Positions 807-15,670 of a DNA stretch of 64,000 nucleotides are shown here, one piece after another. The position numbers were made by a program, and so were the translations under genes. The stretch is taken from NCBI GenBank assembly GCA_965214705.1, contig CBDCCI010000002.1:2112001-2176000 (forward strand), read 5' to 3'. Each line of letters starts with the position of its first letter. Within the stretch, counting starts at the first letter, position 1. Below the pieces are notes generated by a model. That model was given only the letters and a program-made list of their open reading frames with translations. It was not told where the DNA came from and made no database searches. The stretch comes from Alphaproteobacteria bacterium. Lineage in GTDB: Bacteria > Pseudomonadota > Alphaproteobacteria > UBA828.

Positions 807-3154
807 CTCTCAACTACCCACTGTTGAGTCAGTTCCATGTTTGATCATGTCCAGGTCCTTCAAGGCACGGTAGGTGAGGGTGGCGTGTCGCAGGTAGACG
901 TAGCCCTTCCAGAGCAGTTGGGTTCCCGGCAGGGGCTGCCGTTTTCGTGGATCGAAGCCGGCGAACCTGGCGACATCGATGACGAAGGTGCGGATGTCCG
1001 GGGGCTTGTCGGGCGGCGGACGGGCGCGAACCATGCCGTAGGCCATCAGCCTGATGTAGAGGATGGCGATTTCGTCGTCCGAGACGACGTGGTTGGCCGG
1101 GGTGTCCGGCTTGTCGCGCGCGATGCGTTCGAGATCGAAGACGTGGCAGGCGGTGATGGCATCGAAGGCGACACACTTTCGCAGGTCGTCGGCGTGGTCG
1201 AGCTTTCGGTCCTCGACGCGGGTGCCGGTCTTCAGAACCTTGAAGTACTCCTCGATGGTCCATCGGCGCTCGTACCAGGTGACGACGGTCTGGGCGGTCT
1301 CGGCGTCGGCGCTGCCCTCGGTGCTCAGCAGCAGCCAGTTGAGCGGGTCCTTGCCGGCGGGCGGGTCGGGTTCGGTCGCGGACACGACGAGCATGTCGAC
1401 CGGCTCCCGGCTCTCGGCGTCGCGCGGTGGCGCCAGACTGACCCTGGCGGCGCGCAGCTCCAGCGTTGCCGTGCGCCTGGACCGCGCCCGCTTGCCGCCG
1501 CAGGCGCCGATCTCCACGGTCTTGCCGGCAAGGCGCGGGAGAGCGGCGACATGCTCCCACACGCTCTCCTCCTCGCCGCTCTCAAGGATCACCCGCCGCT
1601 GTGCCGACCGGCGCGCGCGCACCAGCAGCGCCGCGCCTTGCGATGCGGCCCTGGTGAGCAACGCCCAGATGTCGCCCTCCCGGTCGCAGACCGTGACCAC
1701 CCGCGTCGCAGGGCAGGCGCGGGCCAACTCCTGCGCCCGCTCGTGCCCGCGCAGCCAGCGTTCACTCTCGATTTCCCTGTCGTCGCCGTCGCGGAAGCTC
1801 GCATCAAGGGCGAACACGCCGAGCGGCCGCCCGGCCGCGTTGAGCGCCAGACCCACATGCGCCACCAGTCCGCACGTGCCCTTGCCGCCGCCGCCCACCC
1901 CGACGAGGCCTTCGGTCGCTTTGAGCCCGTCGTAGTTCAGCGTGGTGGTGTCCTGGATCGCGAGAACGATGTCCTCAAGCTGGCAGCGCTCCACCATCGT
2001 TGCCCGGTGCGGCTCCAGGATGTGCTCCATGCTCACCTTCCCGCTCGACAGCAGCCGGTAGGCCGCCTTGCGCTCCGGCCGGGCCGGAAAGATCGCCGGG
2101 ATCGCGGCCCCCGGGCGCTCCAGCCACGCCCGTCCCATGCGCTCGATCCGATCGCGGACCCGGCCGTCAGGATGCGTGCTGCGCGCATATTCCCGCCCCG
2201 CCCAGTCCGTGTCCTCGTCCATGTGCAACGCCGGCGCCGCACGGATGTCCCGGGCCGGCTCGGCGCACAAGATGGCCTGCCAATCCGCCGCCAGCGGCTT
2301 CATCCACACCGTCCGCGCCGCCCCGGCGGCGGACCCCGGCGGCTGGCCCGAGGTGTGCTGGGAACAGCACCGCCAGCCCGCCGCCCGGTAGCAGGTGCCG
2401 GCATGCTCGGGGCCGACATAGCTGTAGGCCAGGACCGGCCGCGCCCTGTAGGCCGTCTCCCAGTCCGCCGCCACGCGCCCGGCCGCCAGCTCCAGCACCC
2501 GCGAGGCCAGACCGTGGACGCGCACGCCGGGCAGAAGCAGGAAGCGATGGTTGTTGATCAGGAGCGGCAGGTTCAAAGCCCGCGCGTCCGCCGACCAGCC
2601 GATAAAGTCGTCGCGCGCCTTCTGGTGCCAGCTCGCGGCGCAAAACCCGATGCCGCCGAGGCGGCCGTGAAGCGAGGAACGCACCCAGTAGCGCAGCTGC
2701 CCGCCCGGAGCCCGCGCCCAGCCTTGCGGGTGGTGCGTCGCAATCATCGCTTGCCACAGTTGCCGCTCGGCATCGCCGTCGACCGGCTCCAGTGTCACCG
2801 AGCCCAGATCCGCAAGCCGGCAGCGAAGCGAAAGGTCGGGGTAGGCTTCGATGGGCGCACTCTCGCGACGCCCCCGGCCGAACGCCGCCCGCGCCGCCGG
2901 CAGCGCGAGCCCGAGCTTGTCCGCCAGAACCGGCAGAGCCTTGCGCGCGGACGCAAGACAGTGCTCGCCCCGATCGCCGGTCCAGTCCTCAAGCGCGCAG
3001 AGATCGCGGGCAAGAGAACTGCGAGTGCGGCCCTCCTCCAGGACCGCCTTGCTCAACCACTCGATCGTGTCGGCGTGAAACTGGTGAAGGCCAACTTGCA
3101 TGGCACGACATGTAGCCCACACCACTCATTGAGTCAACTGTGGACCGGTGTGAG
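807..3154 (-). mobile_element. IS4-family (IS50/Tn5-like) insertion sequence, 2348 bp
   Basis: Imperfect 25-bp terminal IRs (CTCTCAACTACCCACTGTTGAGTCA / CTCACACCGGTCCACAGTTGACTCA). 9-bp target duplication GCCTCGAGC at 798-806 and 3155-3163. Confidence 0.92.
810..3125 (-). CDS. IS4-family transposase with N-terminal DUF4338 (DruA/Mom-like) domain
   Basis: C-terminal DDE motifs QDTT, VCDREGD, YERRWTIEEYFKVLK. N-terminal HHPQG...GQLRY...ARDDFIGW...NNHRFLLLP...LASRVL...GTCYRAAGW is typical of DUF4338. Confidence 0.88.
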   Translation of the reverse strand: MVWATCRAMQVGLHQFHADTIEWLSKAVLEEGRTRSSLARDLCALEDWTGDRGEHCLASARKALPVLADKLGLALPAARAAFGRGRRESAPIEAYPDLSLRCRLADLGSVTLEPVDGDAERQLWQAMIATHHPQGWARAPGGQLRYWVRSSLHGRLGGIGFCAASWHQKARDDFIGWSADARALNLPLLINNHRFLLLPGVRVHGLASRVLELAAGRVAADWETAYRARPVLAYSYVGPEHAGTCYRAAGWRCCSQHTSGQPPGSAAGAARTVWMKPLAADWQAILCAEPARDIRAAPALHMDEDTDWAGREYARSTHPDGRVRDRIERMGRAWLERPGAAIPAIFPARPERKAAYRLLSSGKVSMEHILEPHRATMVERCQLEDIVLAIQDTTTLNYDGLKATEGLVGVGGGGKGTCGLVAHVGLALNAAGRPLGVFALDASFRDGDDREIESERWLRGHERAQELARACPATRVVTVCDREGDIWALLTRAASQGAALLVRARRSAQRRVILESGEEESVWEHVAALPRLAGKTVEIGACGGKRARSRRTATLELRAARVSLAPPRDAESREPVDMLVVSATEPDPPAGKDPLNWLLLSTEGSADAETAQTVVTWYERRWTIEEYFKVLKTGTRVEDRKLDHADDLRKCVAFDAITACHVFDLERIARDKPDTPANHVVSDDEIAILYIRLMAYGMVRARPPPDKPPDIRTFVIDVARFAGFDPRKRQPLPGTQLLWKGYVYLRHATLTYRALKDLDMIKHGTDSTVGS

Positions 3155-3384: not shown

Positions 3385-3466
3385 GAATCCGGCTTGTTTC
3401 CGCACGCGCGTGCGGTTATCCGGGGTTCCGGAGAAGGGCGGGAGGCGGCCAAGTGATTGAAATAAA

Positions 3467-3511
3467 TGGTCGGAGTGAGTGGATTTGAACCACCGACCCC
3501 CGCCTCCCGAA
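3467..3511 (-). repeat. att site: 45-bp duplication of the 3' part of tRNA-Pro
   Basis: TGGTCGGAGTGAGTGGATTTGAACCACCGACCCCCGCCTCCCGAA is identical to 15594-15638 and lies next to the integrase. Confidence 0.95.
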
Positions 3512-3593
3512 CACCTATCCATACCGTTTGTTCTCGCTATAGTCGCCGCTTTTGCGCCGTTTCGTTCTCATTCGCGCCCGTTCACGAGGCAGG

Positions 3594-3616
3594 TTTCTGC
3601 CCCATGGGGCAGTTAT
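3594..3616. repeat. 23-bp repeat with 16-bp perfect palindrome (copy 1), probable recombination-protein binding site
   Basis: TTTCTGCCCCATGGGGCAGTTAT, identical at 15524-15546. Confidence 0.75.
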
Positions 3617-4653
3617 GACGCCCTTCCCGGGCGCCGGCCCATCGCCTCGACGGCGCTCTCCATATGCGCCGGGTGATGGTGCCCGTAGGTCGACTCGAGC
3701 ATGTCCACAGTCAGGCCGAAGAAGCCCGCCGCGTGCCAGCGATCGGCGCCGTTCTGCATCGCCCACGTGATCGCGGTGTGCCGTAGATCGTGCTTGGTCG
3801 CATGAGCGATGCCCGACTCGTTGAGCGCCGTTCGCCATGCTGTCTTGAGGCTCGCGACGCGCGCCCCCTTCACTTCCACGACGTGACGGGCGCCGAGTCG
3901 TTCCCACCGCTGCAGGTGCGCGAGGAGTCGGCGCGGCACTGGCACGGGCGGGGTCCGTTTCGTGGTCTCGACTTCGCCAGCCGCGCGGCGGTAGAGAACG
4001 CCCTTGTCAGTGTCCACCCATCCGCCGGACGTGTTCGGCATGTACTGGAGTCGCAAGATCGATTCCGTTCTCGTGCCGGTGTAGAGGGCTACAAGGATGA
4101 ACCGGGCAAGGTGCCGAGCCTTGGGGTTGCGGTAGGCAGCCCGGATCAACTTTGCCGCTTCCCCCCGGCTTAGCCAGCGATCACGGGGTGCTGGCTTGGC
4201 CGGGAGACGGACGCGGGGCGCCGACGTGATGTAGCCCTCCGCGTGGCAGTGATTGATCGCCGCCGCTAGGGTGCCTAGCTCTTTTCGGATCGTGCCGGGC
4301 GCCCGGTTGCGAGCCTTGCCGTATCGCCGGCAGACCTCGCCAGTGATCGTCGATAGGGGCAGCGGCCCCAAGATCGGCACTAGAGCCCGGATGCAATCGC
4401 CGATCCGGGCGGGGTCTTTGACGTGTGGCGCCCGTTCACGTGCGTAGATGTCGAGCGCTCGAGCGACCGTCACCCGATCCGGTGCACTTGGGCCGGTGGG
4501 CCGGTCTCGTTGTGCGATGTACGCCGCAAGGGCTTGCTCAGCTTCGCTGCGCTCGCCAGTGCCTGTTGACACTCGGTGCTCGCCGTCGCGGATGATGAAG
4601 ACGCTCCGGTCCGCGCGGTATTGGAGGCGCGCTCCTTTGCTTGGTCTCGACAT
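3613..4653 (-). CDS. Tyrosine recombinase / phage integrase
   Basis: Catalytic motifs YTGTR, KHDLRHT, TYGHH; adjacent to the att site. Confidence 0.93.
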   Translation of the reverse strand: MSRPSKGARLQYRADRSVFIIRDGEHRVSTGTGERSEAEQALAAYIAQRDRPTGPSAPDRVTVARALDIYARERAPHVKDPARIGDCIRALVPILGPLPLSTITGEVCRRYGKARNRAPGTIRKELGTLAAAINHCHAEGYITSAPRVRLPAKPAPRDRWLSRGEAAKLIRAAYRNPKARHLARFILVALYTGTRTESILRLQYMPNTSGGWVDTDKGVLYRRAAGEVETTKRTPPVPVPRRLLAHLQRWERLGARHVVEVKGARVASLKTAWRTALNESGIAHATKHDLRHTAITWAMQNGADRWHAAGFFGLTVDMLESTYGHHHPAHMESAVEAMGRRPGRAS

Positions 4654-4808
4654 AGCCTCACAAGCTCCTCTAGGTCGTTCGGGTCGATGCGGATGGCCCG
4701 GCCCATCCTCACCAACAAACCGTGCTCCTCGGCTGCCCTACGAAGGGCAGCGCGCGGCACGCCAAGCAAGGAGGCGGCTTCGGCGATGGTGAGGAGGCGG
4801 CCCGGCAT
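4470..4808 (-). CDS. Excisionase-like HTH protein
   Basis: LLTIAEAASLLGVP...RIDPNDL (HTH_17-like); overlaps the integrase 5' end. Confidence 0.75.
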   Translation of the reverse strand: MPGRLLTIAEAASLLGVPRAALRRAAEEHGLLVRMGRAIRIDPNDLEELVRLCRDQAKERASNTARTGASSSSATASTECQQALASAAKLSKPLRRTSHNETGPPAQVHRIG

Positions 4809-4812
4809 CGAG

Positions 4813-5187
4813 CTACTGCATCAACGGCGCAATCGCTTCGCGATCTACCTTTGGAGGCGTCAACGTGATCGGATCGCGTCCGTCGATCTGGACGATGTAA
4901 CCGCCGTCATCCGTCTGTCTTGCGCCGACCGCATCGACGCCAACCATTCGCAGGGCATCGACGGCGCCCGTCATGACGGCCTTGTCCATCAACGCTTGCA
5001 CTTGGTCGAGCGGCAACAGGCGACCTTCGCAACGTTCGATCATTAGAGCGAGTCCACCCGAGAGAACGTCCTGCACGGACAGCCGCACATTGCCCGGCGT
5101 GGCCCGCTCAAATGCGTCAATGGCTTGGTCGATCAGGTCGCTGCGCGCCCGGCACGTACGAAATTTCGGCGCTTCACGCTTGGGCAT
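4813..5187 (-). CDS. Hypothetical protein (possible ribbon-helix-helix N-terminus)
   Basis: Strong RBS (GGAGG) and AT-rich upstream region; co-oriented with xis and int. Confidence 0.6.
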   Translation of the reverse strand: MPKREAPKFRTCRARSDLIDQAIDAFERATPGNVRLSVQDVLSGGLALMIERCEGRLLPLDQVQALMDKAVMTGAVDALRMVGVDAVGARQTDDGGYIVQIDGRDPITLTPPKVDREAIAPLMQ

Positions 5188-5240
5188 AGAACCCTCCTAA
5201 TAGGATTATACAAGTATGTAGCATTTTTTATCGTATTGTA
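5188..5240 (-). promoter_or_regulatory. AT-rich promoter region with TATAAT -10 and RBS for the hyp-xis-int operon
   Basis: The minus strand reads ...TACTTGTATAATCCTATTAGGAGGGTTCTATG. Confidence 0.55.
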
Positions 5241-5459
5241 TCAACTCCGCTGTTCGGCACGACGAAGGTAGGCGGCACGATTGCGAACAGCCGGCTCTGT
5301 CCGGCCAAGCTCCCGCGCCAGCCATCGCCAATCTGGGTGCGCAAGGTCGAGGCGCGCCCGCACCGCGTCATCTTCTGCCCGCGTCCAGTGCCGCAGGTTC
5401 GGATTGCCCGAGCGGCCGGGTCGCCAGCGTGGCGAGTAAGCGCGTTGCGTCTCTCTCAT
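5241..5459 (-). CDS. Small Myb/SANT-like HTH protein
   Basis: WTRAEDDAVR...W..LARELGRTEPAVRNR pattern; start overlaps the portal stop. Confidence 0.65.
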   Translation of the reverse strand: MRETQRAYSPRWRPGRSGNPNLRHWTRAEDDAVRARLDLAHPDWRWLARELGRTEPAVRNRAAYLRRAEQRS

Positions 5460-6529
5460 GCTTCATCCCCCGCAATCAGCCCCGACGTGGCCAACGCTTC
5501 GTTCACTGCAACGCCCCCGGCCACCAACTTTTGAAACGCCTGCGCACGCCCGGCCAAGTCGAGTGGATACGAGTCGAAGCGCAACTTGATCGGCGTTTCG
5601 AGCTTCGCGGCAAGCTCATACTCAAGCTGCCTCGCGAGCGGCAGCACGGTCCCAAGGTGCCACTGCCGTAGCGCCTCACGTTTGCTCGTGCCGTCCGAGG
5701 CGTCGAACAGCGCCGGGCTGCATCCGCACGCCGCCAGCATTCGGGCGAACGCTTGGTCTGCCAAGTTCACCTGAGCTTCGGGAGCGGCCGGCCCAAGTCG
5801 ACTCGGACGCCAATCGCGGTGCGGCGCCGCAGCCTGCCCGTCTCCCCACGCCGCCGCCGTCGTCTCGACCAGCAGCGCCTTGCCTCGCGCCTTGCCGATA
5901 TCGAGCTTGAGCTTGGCGAGCGGGTCTTCGTCTTCGTCGCCGTCGCCGCCGTCCTGCGGAATGGATACCAGCTGTGCCAGCGGTCCGCCGGCTTCGTCGG
6001 CAAGAGAGCGCTCGACTTCGCTTTGCAGCCGCGCCGTCGTGGATGCCCAACTCGTCGGCGCGAGGCCGTGATACGGCCGTGCCGTCGAAGTTCCCCATGT
6101 GCAGAAAACGACGGATGCCATGGGTAGGCGCCAAGTGAAAGAACCGTCCGGCCCGTAGGCCGTCGCCGTCACTGTCCAAACGTTCGGATAAACCCCGCCC
6201 GACCAATACCACGTGCTGCACGGCACCAGGTCGACGCGGCCCATGTCGCCCATGCGGATCGCGTGGAGCGTTTCGCCGACGCGGACCAAATCACGCCCCA
6301 TCCGGCCCAGGACGGTCGGCGTGATCGATTCCTGCGCCCAGGCTTCCCCGACTACCTCGGCACTCGCAAAGGCTCTGCTGAGCGCCCCCGCGGCCGCCTC
6401 GATGGCAGCGGTGGAGCTTGCATCCGCAATGGTGGCGGACGCCTGCGACGCGGCCAACTGCATGAGTGCGTCGGTGTAGCCGCTTGCAGACTGGCGGGCT
6501 TCGGGCTTCGGCTGCCACGGCCAGCGCAT
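5456..6529 (-). CDS. Phage portal protein
   Basis: 357 aa from MRWPWQPKPEAR. Portal-like features (GLAP, TVLPLARQLEYELAAKL, GRAQAFQKLVAGG); lies in the head module. Confidence 0.8.
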   Translation of the reverse strand: MRWPWQPKPEARQSASGYTDALMQLAASQASATIADASSTAAIEAAAGALSRAFASAEVVGEAWAQESITPTVLGRMGRDLVRVGETLHAIRMGDMGRVDLVPCSTWYWSGGVYPNVWTVTATAYGPDGSFTWRLPMASVVFCTWGTSTARPYHGLAPTSWASTTARLQSEVERSLADEAGGPLAQLVSIPQDGGDGDEDEDPLAKLKLDIGKARGKALLVETTAAAWGDGQAAAPHRDWRPSRLGPAAPEAQVNLADQAFARMLAACGCSPALFDASDGTSKREALRQWHLGTVLPLARQLEYELAAKLETPIKLRFDSYPLDLAGRAQAFQKLVAGGVAVNEALATSGLIAGDEA

Positions 6530-6894
6530 CAACCGATCGCTCCCGCGCGGCGCACCTTCCACGGCGCTAAGAGCGCCTTCGCCCCAGAGTGCCGAAACGC
6601 CATGCCGTGATTGGCAGCGTGCTCGAAGCGAACTTCGCCCACTTGCTCCGCACGCACCCCGCCAAATTCAGACTGCGCTAGGTAGCCTGCGAAGCGGATT
6701 ACGGCTTCATCCTTGATCGCCTGCGGAGCGCCGGGCGCTTCCTTTTCGACGAACGCCCCCGCCATGGCGCCAAGCGAACTGGCGCGCTCATCGTCTTCGG
6801 CCGCGCCCGCCACCGCGGCCTTGAGGCGAGCGATTGCAGCCGACGATGCAACCGGCGTGGTAGGCCACGGGCTTAGCGCCTGCGCTACAGCCAT
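6529..6894 (-). CDS. Head-tail connector/adaptor (HK97 gp6-like)
   Basis: APQAIKDEAVIRFAGYL...GAKALLAPWKVRR pattern; 121 aa; next to the portal. Confidence 0.75.
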   Translation of the reverse strand: MAVAQALSPWPTTPVASSAAIARLKAAVAGAAEDDERASSLGAMAGAFVEKEAPGAPQAIKDEAVIRFAGYLAQSEFGGVRAEQVGEVRFEHAANHGMAFRHSGAKALLAPWKVRRAGAIG

Positions 6895-7364
6895 AGCCGG
6901 CGCTTCCCGCGCTTGCGCTCGCGAACTTCAACTGGCGTGCGGTAGCTCCCGGAGTCGACCAGCGCCGCGCCCAACAGACGCGCCGCGCGGACTTCGCGAA
7001 GCCCGCCCCGCACCCCTTCATGGACGGCCCGGAACTCGACAGATAGACCCGTCATGGTGCCGTTCTTCACCATGGTCGCCGCGTCGCGCCCGCGCTGCGT
7101 ATCGGGAAGCGCCACGTCTATACGAACCTCGCGACCGTCCACGGTCGGCGTAAAGCGCATGATCGGCGCTTGCCGATTGTGCTGTTCGTTCAAGATCACG
7201 CCTTCGTCTGGCCACGACAGGGCGCCGTCCGCGAACACTTCCGCGCGATCCTTCGCACGCTCGCCATAGGTCATCAGAACGCCCCGCAACCGACCGGGCG
7301 ACTGGCGGGTTTCGTCGGCGCGAAGCTCGACTGCGCACCGTAGCTCCCGAGTCTCTCGCGTCAT
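6885..7364 (-). CDS. HK97-family prohead protease (S78)
   Basis: E.FA.GAL, LNEQH (His) and GLSVEF (Ser) motifs. Confidence 0.85.
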   Translation of the reverse strand: MTRETRELRCAVELRADETRQSPGRLRGVLMTYGERAKDRAEVFADGALSWPDEGVILNEQHNRQAPIMRFTPTVDGREVRIDVALPDTQRGRDAATMVKNGTMTGLSVEFRAVHEGVRGGLREVRAARLLGAALVDSGSYRTPVEVRERKRGKRRLWL

Positions 7365-7798
7365 GTGCCGCGCCTCCGATACCAGCGGCCGATTGCCTGC
7401 GCGCAATCATCGGAAAGTTCACCCGTGGCAGGGTCCGCAAGGCGCGCCGACACCACGTCTTCGCCTGGATCAACGATCCGTTCCGTTGCCCCGGCGCCAA
7501 GTCGGCCTAGAAGCTCGCGACGGCGTTCGGGGTCGCCGTCCGAATTCGTGGCGATGACATCAATCTCGCGAGCGGTTGCGCCGGTAATAATCGCGCGCCG
7601 CGCGTACTCTGCGAGTGGTAGCAACCGTTCATCGCGAAGCGGATAGCGCCCGTTCGGCCCGCGCGTGTCGCCAGTCAAAGCCGCGTAGATGCTTTGGAAG
7701 TCCGCGATGACAACTAGGCCAGCGTGTTCCTCGAACAGCTGCCTTGCGAGCGCCGATTTACCAGCGCCGGCCGGCCCCGAAAGCAGGATCGACGCCAT
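7361..7798 (-). CDS. Small P-loop ATPase/kinase-like protein (AAA_33-like)
   Basis: Walker A GPAGAGKS followed by VIADF; ATGA overlap with the protease gene. Confidence 0.75.
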   Translation of the reverse strand: MASILLSGPAGAGKSALARQLFEEHAGLVVIADFQSIYAALTGDTRGPNGRYPLRDERLLPLAEYARRAIITGATAREIDVIATNSDGDPERRRELLGRLGAGATERIVDPGEDVVSARLADPATGELSDDCAQAIGRWYRRRGT

Positions 7799-7804
7799 AG
7801 CCGA

Positions 7805-9067
7805 TCAAGCGACGAACTTGACCCTGACGAAATTCGACGCCCTCGGAAGTGCGAAGCCCCACAAATAATTCAACGTCAGCGCGACTTCGCCCTTAGCAGC
7901 GCCGCCATACGGGTCACGGATCAGCTGGCCGGAGTCCCACACGGCAGCGACGGCCGCACCCTCGATTCCGCGCGCAAGACCGACGAAGCCACCAAAGTCA
8001 TTGGCGTCCGTGGCGGTCTCGATCTCGCCGCGCGTCACCCAGGAAAGGCCGAAGCGCCGCAGGAACTCCGCAATGGTCGTATCGACGCTCGCTCCCGTGT
8101 TCGCGAGGGTGTGGCTCCAAAGCGTGTTCGCTCCGACGGCAAGCACGGTACGCAGGTCGGACGGCGCCATGGCAGCCTTACCGTCGATCAACTCGGCGAA
8201 GGCTTTGAGCACGCTCGATCCCTTCACTTTGTTCGCTTGCGTGATGGTCTTTTCGGTCAGGCCGGCCGCAGTGGTCAGGCCGGTGATGTCCGCCGTCGCC
8301 TCGTTGGCGCCGTCATCGCCCAGGAAAATCGCTCGGTCGATGCCCTCGGTAAGCGCCATGCGCAGGTCGCGTTGCAGCGCGTCCTCAAGTCCCGGAATGC
8401 GGGCCGCATCCTCTAGCGTGAAGACCGCGCGAACGGCGTTACGGGTCGGCTTGATTTCCGTGACCCCGATGGTCCATGCCGCGTCGGCCACCGCTTCCGT
8501 CCTGCCCCGCTGCGCCGCCGACGCGCCGGCCGTGGTAACGGGGTGCGAACTCACACCCGGCTCGACCGACTCCATCGTGACTCCGACTGATGCGGCGGCC
8601 GTGCCGGCAAAGAGCCTGTCAATCCACCGACGCGGCCGGGTCGCCGTGTCAGTGTCGGTCGTGGCGCGTTCCTCAGCCCCCGCCAGCAAGTGAAGCGGGA
8701 AACGGTCGGCACCCATCTCCAGCGCTTGGTTGAACTCGGCCTCGGCACCCGCGACGGCGCGCATTTCCATGGCTGCCGATACATAGTTGCCCAGGCGTAC
8801 TCGGGAGCGCAGTTCGCGAAGCTCGCGGGCTTCCGCGTCCGGCTCACCCGCCGTCGCCCGCTCGCGCTGCTCGGCTTCCTCTTGTTCGACCTCGCGCATT
8901 GCTTGGCGTAGATCGCGCTCCAAGTCTGGTATACCGGCTTCGAGTCGATCAAATTCGGCGCTCTGTTCCTCGGAGCGGTTTTCAATCAGGCCCAACTCTG
9001 CCATGCGCCCGCGCTCTTTGGACTGACGCTCACGAAGTTCGCGGAGTTTCTTTTGTGTTTTCGTCAT
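7805..9067 (-). CDS. HK97-fold major capsid protein with N-terminal coiled-coil (delta) domain
   Basis: 420 aa from MTKTQKK with an RBS. Coiled-coil N-terminus, DRAIFLGDD, and C-terminal IRDPYGGAAKGEVALT. Confidence 0.85.
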   Translation of the reverse strand: MTKTQKKLRELRERQSKERGRMAELGLIENRSEEQSAEFDRLEAGIPDLERDLRQAMREVEQEEAEQRERATAGEPDAEARELRELRSRVRLGNYVSAAMEMRAVAGAEAEFNQALEMGADRFPLHLLAGAEERATTDTDTATRPRRWIDRLFAGTAAASVGVTMESVEPGVSSHPVTTAGASAAQRGRTEAVADAAWTIGVTEIKPTRNAVRAVFTLEDAARIPGLEDALQRDLRMALTEGIDRAIFLGDDGANEATADITGLTTAAGLTEKTITQANKVKGSSVLKAFAELIDGKAAMAPSDLRTVLAVGANTLWSHTLANTGASVDTTIAEFLRRFGLSWVTRGEIETATDANDFGGFVGLARGIEGAAVAAVWDSGQLIRDPYGGAAKGEVALTLNYLWGFALPRASNFVRVKFVA

Positions 9068-9075
9068 GTTTCCCT

Positions 9076-9474
9076 CTATTGCAAAATGCCGGGCGCGGGC
9101 GAAGCGCCTTCGGTCGGTGGGGACAAAATGATTTTCTTGCCGCAAAGCCGCACAATGATGGTTTGTTCTTCGGGGCACGCTGCAATCTCGAAGTCGTCCG
9201 CGACTGCATCGCAATGTTTAAGAACCTTAGCTAACGAATCGCATGTCAGTTCGAACGTTTTGACGCCAAGTATCTCCGCCATGCGTTTTTTCGAAAAAAC
9301 CACTGAATCGTGTTCGGGGTCAAGAACTTCACAAAACAATTCCAGTGCAGCCGCCACAACTTGCGTGCGCGCTATTGTTGGACTTCCTGGCGTGGATTCT
9401 TTGAGAAGTTTCCGCGCCCGGTCCAACGCTGCCGCGCCATCTCGGTTCAAATGGACAACTTTCGTGCGAGCCAT
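9076..9474 (-). CDS. Hypothetical protein (possible RHH DNA-binding N-terminus)
   Basis: Fills the gap between the terminator and the capsid gene; beta-alpha-alpha-like N-terminus. Confidence 0.55.
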   Translation of the reverse strand: MARTKVVHLNRDGAAALDRARKLLKESTPGSPTIARTQVVAAALELFCEVLDPEHDSVVFSKKRMAEILGVKTFELTCDSLAKVLKHCDAVADDFEIAACPEEQTIIVRLCGKKIILSPPTEGASPAPGILQ

Positions 9475-9539
9475 GACCCCGGACTAACACGAGAGTCTAT
9501 GGTTGTCCACAAGCGTTATATTGCGCTATATTATGGAAT

Positions 9540-9565
9540 AAACCTACGAGCGGGCCGTAGGTTTT
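9540..9565. terminator. Intrinsic terminator-like hairpin (bidirectional)
   Basis: AAACCTACG-AGCGGGC-CGTAGGTTTT immediately downstream of the HNH gene. Confidence 0.6.
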
Positions 9566-9574
9566 GTCTTAGGC

Positions 9575-9856
9575 TTAGGTCGTGAGTTCTCTTACTAAGC
9601 GGCGCCATTCCTCACGAGCCGGGTCCGCCTCAATTCCGCGCTCACTCGCCGTCTTGGCGATGTGGCAGGACCGACAGAGTGTCTGTAGATTCGCCAGATC
9701 GTAGGGAGCGCCGCCCCGGTCGAGCGGCACCACATGGTCGGCCTCGAGTCGCCCGGTCCGACCGCACGTGACGCAGCGCCAGCCGTCGCGCTCGAAGACG
9801 TCGCGACGGACAGCCTGCCAGCGGCGGCCGGGGAGGCGGGCATGGTGATGGCTCAT
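9575..9856 (-). CDS. HNH endonuclease (terminase-associated, HK97 gp74-like)
   Basis: CxxC...EADHVVP...GG...NLQTLCRSCH motif; 93 aa from MSHHHARL. Confidence 0.88.
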   Translation of the reverse strand: MSHHHARLPGRRWQAVRRDVFERDGWRCVTCGRTGRLEADHVVPLDRGGAPYDLANLQTLCRSCHIAKTASERGIEADPAREEWRRLVRELTT

Positions 9857-9863
9857 GCTATAG

Positions 9864-11477
9864 CCCGGATTATTCGTGGCGGGTCTGATTTTGGGGTGGC
9901 GGACGTAGCGTAAGCCGTTGCCATCGGGTAGGAATTCGTTGTCGAGGCGTCTTCCTCTCCGAACAACGAAAAAGCCACGCCCGCCATGACCGACGATAGC
10001 CTTCTCCCCTTCGATCTGCCAAGCGTCCAACGCAAGAGGGTGAGCGCCGCCTTCGACGGCGGCCTGATCTCGTCTGACGGCGGCCTGGTCCTGTTGCGCG
10101 AGGCGGAGCGCAGTTTACGTCTGGCCGAGACCCTGGCGGGCTGCATCCGCGACCGGCGCAATCAGGCGCAGGTGGTCCACCCGCTCTCCGCCATGCTGCG
10201 CTTTCGCATGCTGGCCATCGCCTGCGGTTACGAGGATGGCGACGACTGCGACGCGCTGCGCACGGACCCGCTGTTCAAGCTGGCCTCAGGCAAGGCGCCG
10301 GAAAGCAGCCGCGACCTGTGTTCTCAACCGACCATGAGCCGCCTGGAGAACGCGCCGTCTCGCATCGAGGTGGCGCGCATGACGGCCGCCCTGGTCGATC
10401 TCTTCTGCCGCTCCTTCTCAGCCCCACCTGCCGCCATCACGCTGGATATCGACGACACCTGCGATGCCGTGCACGGGCACCAGCAGCTGTCGCTGTTCAA
10501 CGCTCATTACGACACGCGCTGCTTCCTCCCCGTCCACGTCTATCATGTCGAGAGCGGCAAGCCGGTGGCGGTTCTCCTGCGTCCGGGCAAGACGCCGTCG
10601 GGGCCCGAGGTCCGCACCCTCATCAAGCATCTGGTCGGCCGCATCCGCCGCCACTGGCCGCACACCCGGATCGTCTTCCGGGGAGATGCGCACTACGGCC
10701 GCCCGCAAGCCATGGCCTGGTGCGAGGAGAACGGCGTCGACTACATCTTCGGCCTCGCGGGCAACCGCGCGCTCAACGCCTTGGCCTACGAGGTGGCCGA
10801 CGACCTCAAGGTCCGCCGCGCCGAGGCCGGCGCGGACAGGATGCGCAGCTTCGCCGCCTTCGCCTACGCCGCCCGCTCCTGGAGCCGCGAACGCCGGGTC
10901 GTTGCCCGGCTCGAGGCGACGACGCGCGGCTTCGACGCGCGCTATATCGTCACCTCGCTCAAGGGCGAGCCCCGCCGTCTCTACGAAGACATCTACTGTG
11001 CCCGAGGCCAGGCCGAAAACCTGATCAAGATGCACAAGGGCCAGCTCGCCTCGGACCGCACCTCCTGCCAGAGCCCGCTCGCCAACCAGCTCAGGCTGGT
11101 GCTCCACACCGCAGCCTACTGGATGATGCTCGCGCTGCGCGACGCCATTCCCCGCACGGCGCCGCTCGCCCGTGCAGAGTTCGCAACCCTCAGGCTGCGC
11201 CTCCTCAAGATCGGCACCCGCGTCATCGAGAAGGCCACCCGCGTCCGCATCCACTTCACCTCGGCCTGCCCGGACGCCGCTCTCTTCCGACTGCTCGCAG
11301 GCCGCCTCGCCGCAGCAGGCCCCTGAGCGCCGGGGCGATGTGCCCCGACAACCCAGGCTCGTTCAACCCTCAACCCAATAGCGACCCATCCTCAGATCCC
11401 GGCGCCAAACCGCGTCAGGCCACGACGCGACCCGACAACCCAGCCTCAACCGCAAGGTTCTCCGTGAATAAGTCGGG
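9864..11477 (+). mobile_element. IS1380-family insertion sequence, 1614 bp
   Basis: Terminal IRs CCCGGATTATTC / GAATAAGTCGGG; 4-bp target duplication ATAG at 9860-9863 and 11478-11481. Confidence 0.92.
9986..11326 (+). CDS. IS1380-family transposase
   Basis: FDGGLISSDGG, TLDIDDT, FRGDAHY and YCARGQAENLIK motifs. Confidence 0.93.
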   Translation: MTDDSLLPFDLPSVQRKRVSAAFDGGLISSDGGLVLLREAERSLRLAETLAGCIRDRRNQAQVVHPLSAMLRFRMLAIACGYEDGDDCDALRTDPLFKLASGKAPESSRDLCSQPTMSRLENAPSRIEVARMTAALVDLFCRSFSAPPAAITLDIDDTCDAVHGHQQLSLFNAHYDTRCFLPVHVYHVESGKPVAVLLRPGKTPSGPEVRTLIKHLVGRIRRHWPHTRIVFRGDAHYGRPQAMAWCEENGVDYIFGLAGNRALNALAYEVADDLKVRRAEAGADRMRSFAAFAYAARSWSRERRVVARLEATTRGFDARYIVTSLKGEPRRLYEDIYCARGQAENLIKMHKGQLASDRTSCQSPLANQLRLVLHTAAYWMMLALRDAIPRTAPLARAEFATLRLRLLKIGTRVIEKATRVRIHFTSACPDAALFRLLAGRLAAAGP

Positions 11478-11550
11478 ATAGTTCCCGTCCTGCCAAGATC
11501 TCCATCTCGGGGGGATGTACTGTGCACTCTTTTTGAGTTAGGTCATCATC

Positions 11551-12114
11551 ATGGTCAATTGGCAAATCTTGGCGACGGTGGCAGCGCCCATAATCACTCT
11601 CTTTGTTGGTGCCTGGATTGACCGTCGGTTCGAAAGTCGTCCCAGATTATTGACCCACTGGGGTCACGTCTCTTCTTTCAACTACACGAACCAAGATGGT
11701 TCTATAACCCAAGTGAACACCCATGCCGTTGTGCTCAGGAACGCAGGAAGACGAGCGGCAACAAACGTGCGAATGAGTCACCACTATTTGCCATCGTTTA
11801 GTGTTTGGCCGGCTGTTCAATATAATGTAGAGGATATACCGAATTCAGGTCAAGATATTGTTGTGCCAATACTAGTTCCAAACCAACAGTTAACCGTATC
11901 GTATCTATACTTTCCGCCAGTTACTTACGACCGAGTCAATAACGGCGTGAAGTGCGATCAAGGTTTCGCCATTGGGATACCAGTCTTGCTGCGACGGCAG
12001 TATCCCAATTGGGTCAAATACTTTGCGGCCATACTATTGATTGCTGGGGCCTCGACGCTGGTATATGGCCTTTTTGAGCTAGGCCAGTTGGTCGCCGGGC
12101 TGATTTCGGGCTGA
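11551..12114 (+). CDS. Cargo (moron) membrane protein with N- and C-terminal TM helices
   Basis: 187-aa ORF opposite to the structural genes, visibly AT-richer than its flanks, with a beta-rich central domain. Confidence 0.75.
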   Translation: MVNWQILATVAAPIITLFVGAWIDRRFESRPRLLTHWGHVSSFNYTNQDGSITQVNTHAVVLRNAGRRAATNVRMSHHYLPSFSVWPAVQYNVEDIPNSGQDIVVPILVPNQQLTVSYLYFPPVTYDRVNNGVKCDQGFAIGIPVLLRRQYPNWVKYFAAILLIAGASTLVYGLFELGQLVAGLISG

Positions 12115-12188
12115 TGGACTCTGGTTGGTCGCCCTCTATGCTGGCAAGGAACCGCTATGCTCCACGCTCAACCTAATATGCCTGTGGT

Positions 12189-13703
12189 TCAGCCCGCCAA
12201 GCCTCGATAGCGCCAACTCCGCTTCGGACGCTCACCCCGCCGTACGCCTTCCGCAACAGCCAAGATCGCAGCAGCAGCAGCGTCATCGCGCGCCCGCCGC
12301 CGCCGCCCGCCTTCGCTGCCCTTCGCCAGCTTCTCGTTCGCGGCCGGATCGGCAACCGTTGTCGCCTCCGCCAGCGCCGCACGAAGTAGTAGGGAGCGCC
12401 CCGGCGAGACGCACCCCTCCAATACAGCGCGCCGGAATGCCCTCACGTCTTCGGCGCCATCCTTGAAGCCTTGCCCGCGCGGCTGGAATGCCGCTTGCGG
12501 AAAGTGTGCTCGGTCTAGCGCCTGCCTTAGATCAGTCTCCCGGTAGCGGTCAGCAGCAATCGATGACGGCCGGCCCCACCGTGCCAGCACTTCAGATAGC
12601 AGCGCCTCGACGCTCACGGCCCGGCCGGCCGTCACGATCAACTCGCCCCTGTTCGCCATGTCGAGATAGAGCCGCCCCACGCCGTCACGGAGTCCGCGCT
12701 CGCTCAAGTTCGGATGTTCTGGGAACGCGGCTACCGCCTCCAGCCGCCCCGTCGCCGGCCAATAGCCCGCCGCCGCCGACATTGCGGCCCCGTCGCCCAG
12801 GTCCATGCCGAGCGCGTAGGGGCCGCTTCTCTCCGGCATGTCATCGGTCTCGACGCTTGCCCATGTCCCTGCGGTCAACAGCGTGTTCCGCACCACGTCG
12901 GAGACGCCTTGATTCAGTCGCAGCGCTCGGAACGTGGCGAGCAATGCGGGGTCGCGGCGCGCTTCGTCCGCTTCGTCACAGATCGTTTCGGCCAAGTCTG
13001 GCATATGGTCGAGCGCCGGATTCGCCTTGCGCCATGTCCGCTTTCGAAACGGCGGATCGTCCTTTCGCGCCGCGTGGCATTGGGCATAGTCGGCGCCGCC
13101 CGCCAGCATCTTCGCAAACCAGTGTTCATCGTCCGCAGGGCGCGTGCCAAGCGCCACGAAGCGACTCCCCGGTATCTTGCCCCGCGCCGTCTTGAGCGCT
13201 GCCAGCATCGCGTCACGGCTCGTGTGCGGCCATTGCGCCGGCTCATCGGCAAGAATCAATACCGGCGCCAGCCCGTGAGCGCGGCGCGGATCACTTCCGA
13301 TACAACGCGCCTTTGCGCCCGTCTCGCGACACTCTAATAGCGCTACATTTTGGCTGTCTTGAATGCGCCAGCGCTTCGGTTGCGCCTCCAAATACGGCCA
13401 CATAAAAGCGAGGATGTGTTCGAAAACAATGCGCGCTTGTGCGAAGGCCGAAGCGACAATTGTAACTTCGCCGCGCATTTGCATGAGAGGCCCGTCCAAA
13501 CACGCCGTCGCAATGCCCGCAACCAGAGTTGACTTACCGTTGCCGCGCGCGATTGCCAGCGCAGCCGAGCGCACGCCGGGACGGAAAGCCCCCCGAACAA
13601 AGCGACGTTCCCAAGGTAGTACGGAGAAGGGTTGCCCCACGTGGCATCCCTGAGACACCACGAGTCGGGAAAGCCAGGTCTCAAGGGCGTCTGTTTGTGT
13701 CAT
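12189..13703 (-). CDS. Terminase large subunit
   Basis: Walker A IARGNGKST, Walker B LILADEP, nuclease motifs GMDLG and RDDAAAA. Start taken at MTQTDAL. Confidence 0.9.
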   Translation of the reverse strand: MTQTDALETWLSRLVVSQGCHVGQPFSVLPWERRFVRGAFRPGVRSAALAIARGNGKSTLVAGIATACLDGPLMQMRGEVTIVASAFAQARIVFEHILAFMWPYLEAQPKRWRIQDSQNVALLECRETGAKARCIGSDPRRAHGLAPVLILADEPAQWPHTSRDAMLAALKTARGKIPGSRFVALGTRPADDEHWFAKMLAGGADYAQCHAARKDDPPFRKRTWRKANPALDHMPDLAETICDEADEARRDPALLATFRALRLNQGVSDVVRNTLLTAGTWASVETDDMPERSGPYALGMDLGDGAAMSAAAGYWPATGRLEAVAAFPEHPNLSERGLRDGVGRLYLDMANRGELIVTAGRAVSVEALLSEVLARWGRPSSIAADRYRETDLRQALDRAHFPQAAFQPRGQGFKDGAEDVRAFRRAVLEGCVSPGRSLLLRAALAEATTVADPAANEKLAKGSEGGRRRRARDDAAAAAILAVAEGVRRGERPKRSWRYRGLAG

Positions 13704-13758
13704 CGACACGCCACCCCACGGTCCCCGCGACAACGAGCCATCCGAGCGGTGCCATCGA

Positions 13759-14166
13759 TCAACGGATGATCTTGATGCCCAGCGACTTGAGCAAGCGCCC
13801 CGTGAACTCCAATGGATTCGACGGCTGTTTCCATGGTCGATTTCGAGGATCGCTAAAGGCGCGAACTTCGCGGTCCATCGCCCACAACATGACCCTGCCA
13901 ATGGCTTTCGCGTCGACGACTGTTACTGCGCCGTCCACAACGCGACGCGCGATCTCGCGGCGAACGTCATCAAGCGCCGTCGCAATGGCTTTGCGAAGTG
14001 CCGGCCGTTCGGGAATGCCGGCCTGCGGTAGCCCGAACTCGTTCACAATCGCGTCGATGGCAGCCTCACCGAAGACACCGACTTGAACGGCACGCGGCAT
14101 CGCCGCTTGCTTCGCCTGCGCTTGCCTCAGATACCGTTGCAGATTGTGTCCGCCCGTCACTGACAT
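13759..14166 (-). CDS. Phage neck protein (Ne1 / gp10-like)
   Basis: VQVGVF...AIVNEFG...IPERPALR...PLEFTGRLLKS pattern; 135 aa from MSVTGG. Confidence 0.7.
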   Translation of the reverse strand: MSVTGGHNLQRYLRQAQAKQAAMPRAVQVGVFGEAAIDAIVNEFGLPQAGIPERPALRKAIATALDDVRREIARRVVDGAVTVVDAKAIGRVMLWAMDREVRAFSDPRNRPWKQPSNPLEFTGRLLKSLGIKIIR

Positions 14167-14170
14167 GCGT

Positions 14171-14566
14171 TCACTCCCCTTGCGGTTGCGGCTCGATCCG
14201 CTCCGCAAGCGCCGTGTCGTACCCTTGCCAGCGCTCGACCACGCGCACCCTGTAGCGCGTGCCGTCGTAGAGGATGACATCGCCCACCGTCCCATCCCCG
14301 GCGGCTTGCAGCGGGGTCACCGTCCAAAAGACAATCGCGCCACTAAGCCGAATGCCCCCCTCTTCGACGTAGCGTTGAAACTGGGTCCAAGTCTTTGGCC
14401 CGCCAGGAGGCTGCGCCGTTACTCTGATCGGGGTTTCGACAGCTGCGCCAGGAACCCACTCGCCAAATGCGTTGCGGCTTCCGACACCCTCGCGAATCAA
14501 AGTCGCCGATGTTCCGAACGTCGCGCCTGTAATGCGAGAGCGCACGCTAAGGGGTCTTGTTCTCAT
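14171..14566 (-). CDS. Head-closure (stopper) protein
   Basis: GEWV.G...AQP...GDVILYDGTRYRV..VERW pattern. Confidence 0.65.
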   Translation of the reverse strand: MRTRPLSVRSRITGATFGTSATLIREGVGSRNAFGEWVPGAAVETPIRVTAQPPGGPKTWTQFQRYVEEGGIRLSGAIVFWTVTPLQAAGDGTVGDVILYDGTRYRVRVVERWQGYDTALAERIEPQPQGE

Positions 14567-15123
14567 TGCCCGTCCACAACCGTTCTTTGTGACTCTGCCG
14601 GCCCTTTGATTTCGATGTTGACGTGCTCCGCCGTCCCCACGTCTTGCGATGCAGGCTCGCGATATCTGTAAAGAACTATCAAGTCCAAAGCGGCCCGTTC
14701 CTCAAAATGATCGGAAATTATCTCATCCAATTGACGGGCAACAATAGGGCCGTCCAAACGAAAGCCCGCGCGATCTGCAGCTTGTTTCGCGGTTTCGGTA
14801 TCAACCCAAGACATGAAGTTTCGCGCTGCCGTCCGCGCGCCAATGCTTTCCGAGGTTTCTTCGCGAAAGAATTGAATGCTTAGCCTCGCTCTATGAGTTG
14901 TTACGGAATCGATGATTGTATTTTCCGCGTCCCCCGGTTGTACGCGATATTTCTCAAGTGCTGGCCCGTCCAATTGAGCGTCGATTACCAGCACGCTCGC
15001 ATACGGAGTTGACGGGCGACGGCCATTATCATTACCCGGAATGACAAGCTCCGCAGGAATGCCGCTTCCCTGCGCTACGAAGGCGCGGACGCGGCGCTGT
15101 ACAACTTGCGGCATCATGTCCAA
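14563..15123 (-). CDS. Neck/tail terminator (tail-completion) protein
   Basis: VIPGNDNGRRPSTPYASV...LSIQFF...FEERAALDL pattern; overlaps the closure gene. Confidence 0.6.
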   Translation of the reverse strand: MDMMPQVVQRRVRAFVAQGSGIPAELVIPGNDNGRRPSTPYASVLVIDAQLDGPALEKYRVQPGDAENTIIDSVTTHRARLSIQFFREETSESIGARTAARNFMSWVDTETAKQAADRAGFRLDGPIVARQLDEIISDHFEERAALDLIVLYRYREPASQDVGTAEHVNIEIKGPAESQRTVVDGQ

Positions 15124-15185
15124 ATCCTCGCGCTGTTCCGCGCTAGAGCGCTTGACAAATTAGGGCAGATTCCTACCCTTTCCGC

Positions 15186-15320
15186 TCTAGGCAGGCCCGG
15201 TCAGGGAGCCTAGTCCCCCGATCAAGGGGAGCCCGGCGCGTCACCGCTGGGCCGCGTAATCGGTGCCCTTCACCGCTCACCATCGGCGCCCGGCGGGAGA
15301 TCAACCCCGCCGGGTCCGCT
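15186..15320 (+). ncRNA. Candidate structured RNA, possibly C4/CI-type antisense RNA
   Basis: Upstream TTGACA-N16-TACCCT (15152-15179). Five hairpins, two with GATCAA loops, and an alternative long 5'/3' stem. Confidence 0.4.
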
Positions 15321-15523
15321 TATTGCCGGCGCTTGCCGTGGATATCGTCGAGACTGACGAGCACCGGGTCGCCAGGGTCGCGCGGGCGCAACTCCGCACG
15401 GGTGAGGTTCTCAGCGTTGCCCGGATTTTCGCGGATGGACGCGCGACCGCCCCCGCTCGCAGCTACTTTCCCAGCGCCACCGCCAAGGCGCACCGGCGCG
15501 CGTCCCGCCGGCCGAATGGTGGA

Positions 15524-15546
15524 TTTCTGCCCCATGGGGCAGTTAT
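15524..15546. repeat. 23-bp repeat with 16-bp palindrome (copy 2)
   Basis: Identical to 3594-3616. Confidence 0.75.
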
Positions 15547-15593
15547 TCGGCGATGGGGAGGGGAACGGGAGGCGGCTAAGTGCTTGAAATGAT

Positions 15594-15670
15594 TGGTCGG
15601 AGTGAGTGGATTTGAACCACCGACCCCCGCCTCCCGAAGACGGTGCTCTACCAGGCTGAGCTACACTCCG
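15594..15670 (-). tRNA. tRNA-Pro (CGG)
   Basis: CGGAGTGTAGCTCAGCCTGGTAGAGCACCGTCTTCGGGAGGCGGGGGTCGGTGGTTCAAATCCACTCACTCCGACCA: cloverleaf, anticodon CGG, encoded CCA. Confidence 0.97.

Follow-up and report, generated by a model that had tools for sequence, protein, structure and literature searches.

The 64,000-nucleotide stretch analysed here (the window) covers positions 2,112,001 to 2,176,000 of contig CBDCCI010000002.1 in the Alphaproteobacteria bacterium assembly GCA_965214705.1 and carries, at its single tRNA gene, a compact integrated element that encodes its own phage-type head. The tRNA gene, tRNA-Pro(CGG), was located with ARAGORN on the minus strand (15594-15670), and its 3' part forms the core of an exact 45-bp direct repeat whose copies at 3467-3511 and 15594-15638 lie 12,127 nt apart, as established by repeat search and alignment. 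The bounded span of 12.2 kb includes a secondary insertion sequence (IS) of 1,621 bp, without which the unit measures about 10,506 bp. These are the attachment (att) repeats and the size of about 10.5 kb that an earlier note, made by a model from the letters alone, had given for the locus. The G+C content is 0.56-0.68 within the element and 0.70-0.73 in the flanks. The genes are tightly packed and every gene of the element except one lies on the minus strand. From the tRNA side the order is terminator-like protein, head-closure-like protein, gp10-like Neck1, TerL, HNH, orf132, capsid, AAA_33 P-loop protein and S78 protease, followed by orf121, portal, a Myb-like 72-aa protein, orf124, an AlpA-type HTH_17 protein and a tyrosine integrase. 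The features, in window coordinates, are:

3467-3511, no strand: attR core, exact 45-bp copy of the tRNA-Pro 3' part
3594-3616, no strand: 23-nt palindromic motif, copy 1, identical to 15524-15546
3613-4653, minus: tyrosine integrase, 346 aa (PF00589; phrog_1, E 3.5e-39)
4470-4808, minus: AlpA/excisionase-like HTH_17 protein, 112 aa (PF12728, E 3.7e-8; phrog_66, E 2.1e-7)
4813-5187, minus: orf124, no Pfam, PHROG or PADLOC match
5241-5459, minus: Myb/SANT-like protein, 72 aa (PF13921, E 0.0029, below cut-off)
5456-6562, minus: portal (PF04860, E 4.9e-4; phrog_12, E 2.3e-5)
6529-6894, minus: orf121, putative gp6-like head-tail adaptor, position kept between protease and portal
6885-7406, minus: prohead serine protease, S78 (PF04586, E 1.4e-6; phrog_80, E 6.5e-10)
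7361-7798, minus: AAA_33-type P-loop protein, 145 aa (PF13671)
7805-9070, minus: major capsid protein, predicted HK97 fold with an N-terminal helical delta-like domain
9076-9474, minus: orf132, no family match, not found in relatives
9575-9856, minus: HNH endonuclease, 93 aa, ATG at 9856 (PF01844, E 5.5e-12), start in agreement with relatives
9861-11481, plus: insertion sequence, a secondary insertion, with a DDE_Tnp_1_4 transposase at 9986-11326
11551-12114, plus: orf187, low-GC opposite-strand open reading frame (ORF) of 187 aa between IS and TerL, no family match
12189-13703, minus: TerL (phrog_9, E 2.1e-59)
13759-14166, minus: HK97 gp10-like tail-completion/Neck1 protein (phrog_222, E 2.6e-12)
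14171-14566, minus: head-closure-like protein (phrog_939, E 4.8e-14; PDB head-closure protein, E 0.049)
14563-15123, minus: neck/tail-terminator-like protein (PF23961, E 3.5e-15, 56.5 bits against a cut-off of 27)
15524-15546, no strand: 23-nt motif, copy 2, 47 nt inside attL
15594-15670, minus: tRNA-Pro(CGG), whose 3' 45 nt (15594-15638) are the attL core

Twenty ORFs were scanned against PHROGs and 24 against Pfam, and none matched a tail tube, sheath, tape measure, baseplate, fibre, lysis or repressor family, which bears out the gene inventory of the earlier note on this point. The note had also named an integrase and an excisionase; the integrase stands, while the second gene is better described as an AlpA-type HTH_17 protein, whose role would be regulatory. 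The same protein gives the sole trace of a TerS in the element, a weak match to phrog_57 (E 0.0018). The integrase is 82-85% identical to that of the related locus L044 and 68% identical to those of L045 and L059. The assignment of orf121 as a gp6-like head-tail adaptor is probable and draws on its conserved position and on its family, of which three of 15 members weakly match PF05135 (best E 0.029); similarly, the portal models are matched more strongly by family members than by the portal of the window. The AAA_33 P-loop protein reaches an Atlas score of 0.95 to mostly viral AAA_33 clusters, and a small gene of this type is kept between capsid and protease in the window and in L012, L047, L052, L053, L057, L062 and L066. 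Two of the neck genes, those matching phrog_222 and PF23961, are tail-proximal. In an excised circle both copies of the 23-nt motif would flank attP, making the motif, which also occurs near both ends of the related element L045, a candidate arm-type recombination site or hairpin. A promoter and terminator scan gave results at chance level.

By sequence alone the capsid protein is only weakly recognised (PF05065, E 0.0064), and its assignment is carried by structure prediction. An AlphaFold2 model built from a 71-sequence alignment (mean predicted local distance difference test, pLDDT, 91; predicted template modelling score, pTM, 0.75) starts with a long helical N-terminal domain and continues as a body resembling HK97-fold proteins in Foldseek. 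Searched against the PDB, the model returned 356 matches at E<=0.001, and the top matches among those listed include the T5-like, roseophage R4C, actinophage, RcGTA (Rhodobacter capsulatus gene transfer agent) and HK97 capsids together with encapsulins. The capsid profile matched three PDB sequences, all of them major capsid proteins. In the model, then, the capsid protein of the window has the HK97 fold. A first model from a shallow 29-sequence alignment had a pLDDT of 42 and was discarded, and hhalign comparisons of the family profiles with HK97 gp5, gp6 and terminator were not significant. Homologues of the capsid are abundant, with 1,923 representatives (50% identity level) at E<=0.001. 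Many capsid and terminator homologues are carried by metagenome contigs of about 9-11 kb, which is the size of the element, and assembled free or circular satellite genomes would fit such contigs. One capsid homologue and one terminator homologue each lie on a contig of 9,704 nt, which may be one and the same, and a scan of JGI metagenomes gave 13 loci, none of which is a complete contig of about 10 kb.

The relatives of the element form a compact family. A tblastn search with the capsid gave no match in 50,697 phage records, and an IMG/VR scan gave no relative; the terminator-like and Neck1 proteins had no match in the phage collection, and the best phage match of TerL is HK97-like at 27.7% identity. 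The capsid is matched at E<=1e-10 in five of the 401 genomes of the class sample, its own genome included, while a profile scan of species genomes located 29 loci, all in metagenome-assembled genomes (MAGs), the majority bearing the labels Alphaproteobacteria, Rhodospirillales or Paracoccaceae and a few Gammaproteobacteria, Immundisolibacterales, Longimicrobiales or Binatia. The closest capsid relatives are 54-70% identical. Repeats overlapping a tRNA flank the capsid in nine of the 25 loci long enough to test, and together with L036, the sister element L018 and the window element this brings the att-bounded elements to 12. Their repeats lie 9,704, 9,938, 10,148, 10,452, 10,584, 10,682, 10,741, 10,868, 12,114, 12,127, 13,037 and 13,231 nt apart, at Lys, Leu, Arg, Pro, Thr and Met tRNAs. 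Three of the four elements longer than 12 kb contain an IS: the window element, L018 (IS66 type) and L044 (a transposase and an IstB-like gene inside the integrase); the fourth, L041, holds an unannotated 3.8-kb insert. The search for homologous compact elements proposed in the earlier note gives twelve, the window element among them, bounded by tRNA repeats 9.7-13.2 kb apart; no tail module was seen in the 20 loci scanned for one. Closest homologues in full-length tailed prophages, which the note had named as the case against a satellite, were not what emerged, since no phage matched and the nearest homologues are themselves compact.

The core order TerL-HNH-capsid-(P-loop)-protease-orf121-(head closure)-portal is kept in the intact loci except L057, a circular permutation in which the integrase immediately precedes the capsid; some of the related loci are truncated or degraded. 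The nearest relatives of the window element are L044 (TerL 77%, integrase 82-85% identical), L045 and L059, which share the far-end position of the integrase. Behind the portal, L030 (13342-13875), L044 (14149-14520) and L045 (14271-14675) carry another gene of HNH type (phrog_5351), which is not present in the window element. Capsids of L011, L039, L041, L043 and L061 on one side and of L030, L040, L044 and L045 on the other are 60-70% identical to that of the window throughout, whereas the TerL proteins of the two sets fall into two classes of 29-36% and 45-77% identity; this suggests that the terminase module has been swapped within the family.

Tail genes were sought with PHROG scans in 20 loci, including the window element, L018, L030 and L036. 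For L011 the scan covered 77 of 97 ORFs of at least 90 aa, 20 overlapping core ORFs being dropped; for L044, L045, L047, L056 and L059 it covered the non-core ORFs, and for ten further loci greedily selected ORFs of at least 100 aa outside the core. No match of the PHROG category 'tail' was obtained in any of the 20. Connector matches were found in the window, in L047 (Neck1 just upstream of TerL) and in L062 (Neck1 after the portal), and Mu Gp37-like proteins are encoded in L059 and L040. Besides an integrase, the accessory set of the relatives has an AlpA-like protein and a gene for replication, which is an O-like initiator (L011, L030, L047, L053, L018), a primase-helicase (L036, L056, L037, L043) or a Replicase/PriCT protein (L059, L055). 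The absence of a primase or replicase reported in the earlier note therefore holds for the copy in the window and fails as a trait of the family, as many relatives carry a replication gene. The accessory genes match the satellite pattern described for phage-inducible chromosomal islands of the capsid-forming kind (cf-PICIs).

These islands, whose prototype is EcCIEDL933 of E. coli, offer the closest comparison. In the accessible parts of the published descriptions, cf-PICIs are integrated, att-bounded elements of about 10-18 kb (10.1101/2025.02.11.637232), and the proteobacterial ones run capsid-protease-portal-connectors and then hnh-terS-terL (10.1101/2022.09.08.507074). The proteins of their packaging module are there described as a single family, 50-90% similar to those of EcCIEDL933 (10.1101/2022.09.08.507074). 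As far as these descriptions go, the window element shares with cf-PICIs a small integrated island format, an integrase, an AlpA-type regulator, HNH, TerL and an HK97-fold capsid of its own, as well as a protease, a portal and head-tail connectors, and neither has tail or lysis genes. In both, the capsid is followed by the protease and then the portal, an agreement in order that the earlier note had pointed out and that the accessible text confirms (10.1101/2022.09.08.507074). The element also lies within the size range (10.5 kb without and 12.2 kb with the IS) and has the att boundary (45-bp core). It carries the integrase, regulation, capsid, protease and portal, adaptor/connector, and HNH and TerL modules, with no lysis genes and no complete tail module; the primase-replicase module is absent from it and present in relatives. 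In contrast to the cf-PICI order, in which hnh-terS-terL follows the connectors, TerL-HNH stands upstream of the capsid, the connectors are placed either between protease and portal or close to the att site, and the integrase occupies the far end of the operon. Further differences are the absence of a recognised TerS or primase-replicase, the extra gp10-like and terminator-like neck genes, a capsid that barely matches PF05065 (E 0.0064) and hosts that for the window family are mostly alphaproteobacterial MAGs. The element is set apart here by gene content and gene order as given in descriptions of cf-PICIs. Experiments on capsid-forming satellites, according to the accessible text of the reports, were made in Enterobacteria, with predictions in other Proteobacteria and in Firmicutes (PMC10085698, 10.1101/2022.09.08.507074, 10.1101/2025.02.11.637232), and our literature search found no description of such satellites in Alphaproteobacteria.

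Other systems resemble the element in part. With HK97-like siphophages it shares the TerL family (27.7% identity), HNH-assisted packaging, the S78 protease, the delta-like capsid domain and, by HK97 annotation, the neck series of adaptor, head closure, gp10 family and terminator; HK97 itself, in contrast, is organised as TerS-TerL-portal-protease-capsid with a full tail in 39.7 kb. P4 is not known to carry genes for a capsid, portal or terminase and resizes the capsid of P2. The likeness to P4-like elements lies in an integrated satellite of about 11 kb and perhaps also in the use of contractile tails, if the context of PF23961 is a guide; P4 measures 11.6 kb and has a T=4 capsid in the accessible part of its description (PMC13669383). 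The marine VEIMEs (virion-encapsidated integrative mobile elements) and PICMIs (phage-inducible chromosomal minimalist islands) are, in the accessible text, likewise small satellites that integrate in marine bacteria, in part in Alphaproteobacteria, and that text states VEIMEs to be without capsid genes (PMC9618062); the PICMI abstract gives these as encoding no capsid-remodelling genes. Small alphaproteobacterial heads of HK97 fold are also made by RcGTA, whose capsid (6tb9) is among the top listed fold matches. Gene transfer agents (GTAs) have tails, package host DNA and are not known to have an integrase or att sites. Both of the latter are present in the window element, and its relatives are found at many different tRNAs.

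Taken together, we read the element as a capsid-forming satellite that works much as a cf-PICI does and belongs to a distinct, mainly alphaproteobacterial and largely uncultured lineage, with a probability of about three in four. The earlier note's proposal of a cf-PICI-like satellite with a different gene set gains support from the compact tRNA-bounded relatives. Because the element has head, packaging and neck genes of its own, has no tail and belongs to a large group of alike elements, spread by means of borrowed helper tails is most likely. In such a cycle the integrase would have inserted the element into the 3' end of tRNA-Pro(CGG), and a helper phage would give the signal on which the AlpA-like protein, together with the integrase, excises a circle of about 10.5 kb. 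TerL and HNH, through HK97-type packaging at cohesive ends (cos), would fill small HK97-fold heads assembled from the element's own capsid protein, with its delta-like scaffolding domain, the S78 protease and the portal. The element's own adaptor and head-closure proteins would then close the heads, and the helper would supply the tails. If the members are satellites, much environmental 'phage capsid' sequence would belong to tail thieves and not to phages, the capsid family being large (1,923 representatives) and its members in genomes being small tRNA-bound islands, and the matching of heads to foreign tails could be studied through the variable neck genes.

The neck sets this copy apart from its nearest relatives. 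L044, L045 and L059 lack the three neck genes that adjoin the tRNA in the window element, and several relatives instead have a head-closure homologue placed after orf121 and before the portal. For the terminator-like protein 13 homologues were found, all with PF23961 and mostly on contigs of 9-12 kb, so that other elements with this gene probably exist. PF23961 itself occurs in four of the 401 genomes of the class sample; the terminator-like protein as a query had no match in the 400 other genomes of the class, and a scan of genome contigs with the terminator alignment found nothing. Two PF23961 contexts were examined, both in myovirus-type prophages: in L086 a tail-sheath gene follows immediately, and in L087 baseplate genes are a few kb away. 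This hints, at the level of the family only, at a contractile-tailed helper. The terminator-like protein did not align with the PF23961 protein of L086 in BLASTP, and hhalign against the L086 head protein was not significant. Since gp10-like and PF23961 terminator-like genes are both present, the element may supply every part of the neck as far as the upper end of the tail. A bolder version of the satellite reading, which we hold to be doubtful, is that the lineage arose independently of the three known cf-PICI clades and that its own tail-completion and terminator proteins shift the head-tail boundary tailward, so as to cap and capture unfinished contractile helper tails, with the helper needed for replication and perhaps for cos recognition.

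Several findings weigh against the satellite reading, or against the strength with which it can be held. The genome itself gave no match to PF05065, PF10145 or PF04984, and with these queries no resident tailed helper was found; PF04860 is matched in the genome by element B only (L018, see below). No replication gene and no clear TerS were recognised in the window element with Pfam or PHROG. The portal and adaptor assignments are based on weak scores, and the ORFs were chosen by length cut-offs and greedy selection, by which small genes could be missed. The att-bounded loci L039, L040 and L041 were left out of the PHROG scans. An ORF upstream of TerL in L044 matches PF18352 (E 2e-18), a family that we take to be the N-terminal domain of a phage spike protein; because of this match it is not strictly true that no relative has a tail-related gene. 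Finally, the IS may block expression and oversize the genome, and the copy in the window may be disabled by it.

The last point leads to the alternative that survives best, to which we give somewhat less than an even chance: the element was formerly such a satellite, was fixed in place by the IS and by loss of replication and TerS functions, and is now cargo. The IS (9861-11481) stands between TerL and HNH in opposite orientation, 4 nt upstream of the HNH ATG, where it splits the operon and lengthens the element by 15%. Contigs from runs X1, X5 and X6, which belong to two studies, span its junction, no replication gene or TerS is recognised, and the sister element B also carries an insertion, of IS66 type. 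Against these points, no ORF is broken by the IS and all ORFs are full length in comparison with relatives, the two att cores do not differ and each copy of the 23-nt motif is intact. The insertion is also recent, because the IS is 99.94% identical to another copy in the 7.9-Mb genome, which holds six further near-full copies. The public runs gave no circle, empty site or IS-less joint, a search that covered contigs only and is uninformative.

An autonomous minimal virus or a GTA-like producer, in which the four neck proteins would form a DNA-delivering stub that needs no helper tail, is improbable. Such a particle would account for the full neck set (adaptor-like, head closure, gp10-like and terminator-like) and for the lack of a resident tailed prophage with the three family queries, but no receptor-binding, lysis or ejection genes are recognised, the nearest relatives L044, L045 and L059 have none of the extra neck genes, and PF23961 proteins lie within myovirus-type structural clusters in two other genomes. 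Least probable of all is that a tailed prophage lost its modules for tail and lysis by deletion and left the element as a remnant. Phage-type head genes do lie beside an integrase at a tRNA in a copy with an IS and with no replication gene recognised, but twelve independent elements at different tRNAs have the same compact size, no tail module was seen in 20 loci, no tailed relative was found in the phage and IMG/VR collections, and the genes are tightly packed with no ORF seen to be broken in comparison with relatives.

The same genome contains a second, tail-less member of the family, element B, at tRNA-Thr(CGT) (G000:C3:1920387-1932555; L018 4387-16555). It is bounded by 55-nt att repeats 12,114 nt apart and runs rep (O-like), IS66, an ORF without assignment, TerL, capsid, portal, further ORFs, alpA and int, its integrase being 60% identical to that of the window. 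At 3538416-3539601 of contig C1 (L019) an alpA-like gene lies beside an integrase 64-81% identical to the window's, with no head genes or tRNA nearby; the integrase match comprises two overlapping blocks on one strand, so that it may be frameshifted, and the locus is probably a remnant.

Among the minor genes of the element, orf187 (G+C 0.56-0.58) is probably a cargo gene, and hydrophobic N- and C-terminal stretches, judged by eye, suggest a membrane protein; PADLOC gave no defence match for the cargo ORFs. The products of orf132 (9076-9474) and orf124 (4813-5187) resemble each other weakly at the N terminus (BLASTP E 0.005 over 33 aa) and may be paralogous small DNA-binding proteins; neither was found in relatives. 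Beyond attR, about 70 nt of flank (3397-3466) are some 70% alike to the element-side arm beside attL (15524-15593), each with a different 16-nt palindrome in the same frame (TTTC...GTTAT), the hairpin being changed on both sides; the likeness may be the scar of an older occupant or an extended attP/attB homology. Just to the left of the element, a 771-aa ORF on the minus strand (810-3125) contains a DruA-like domain (PF14236, E 4.8e-22) together with transposase DNA-binding and DDE traces, and looks like a transposase rather than a Druantia system.

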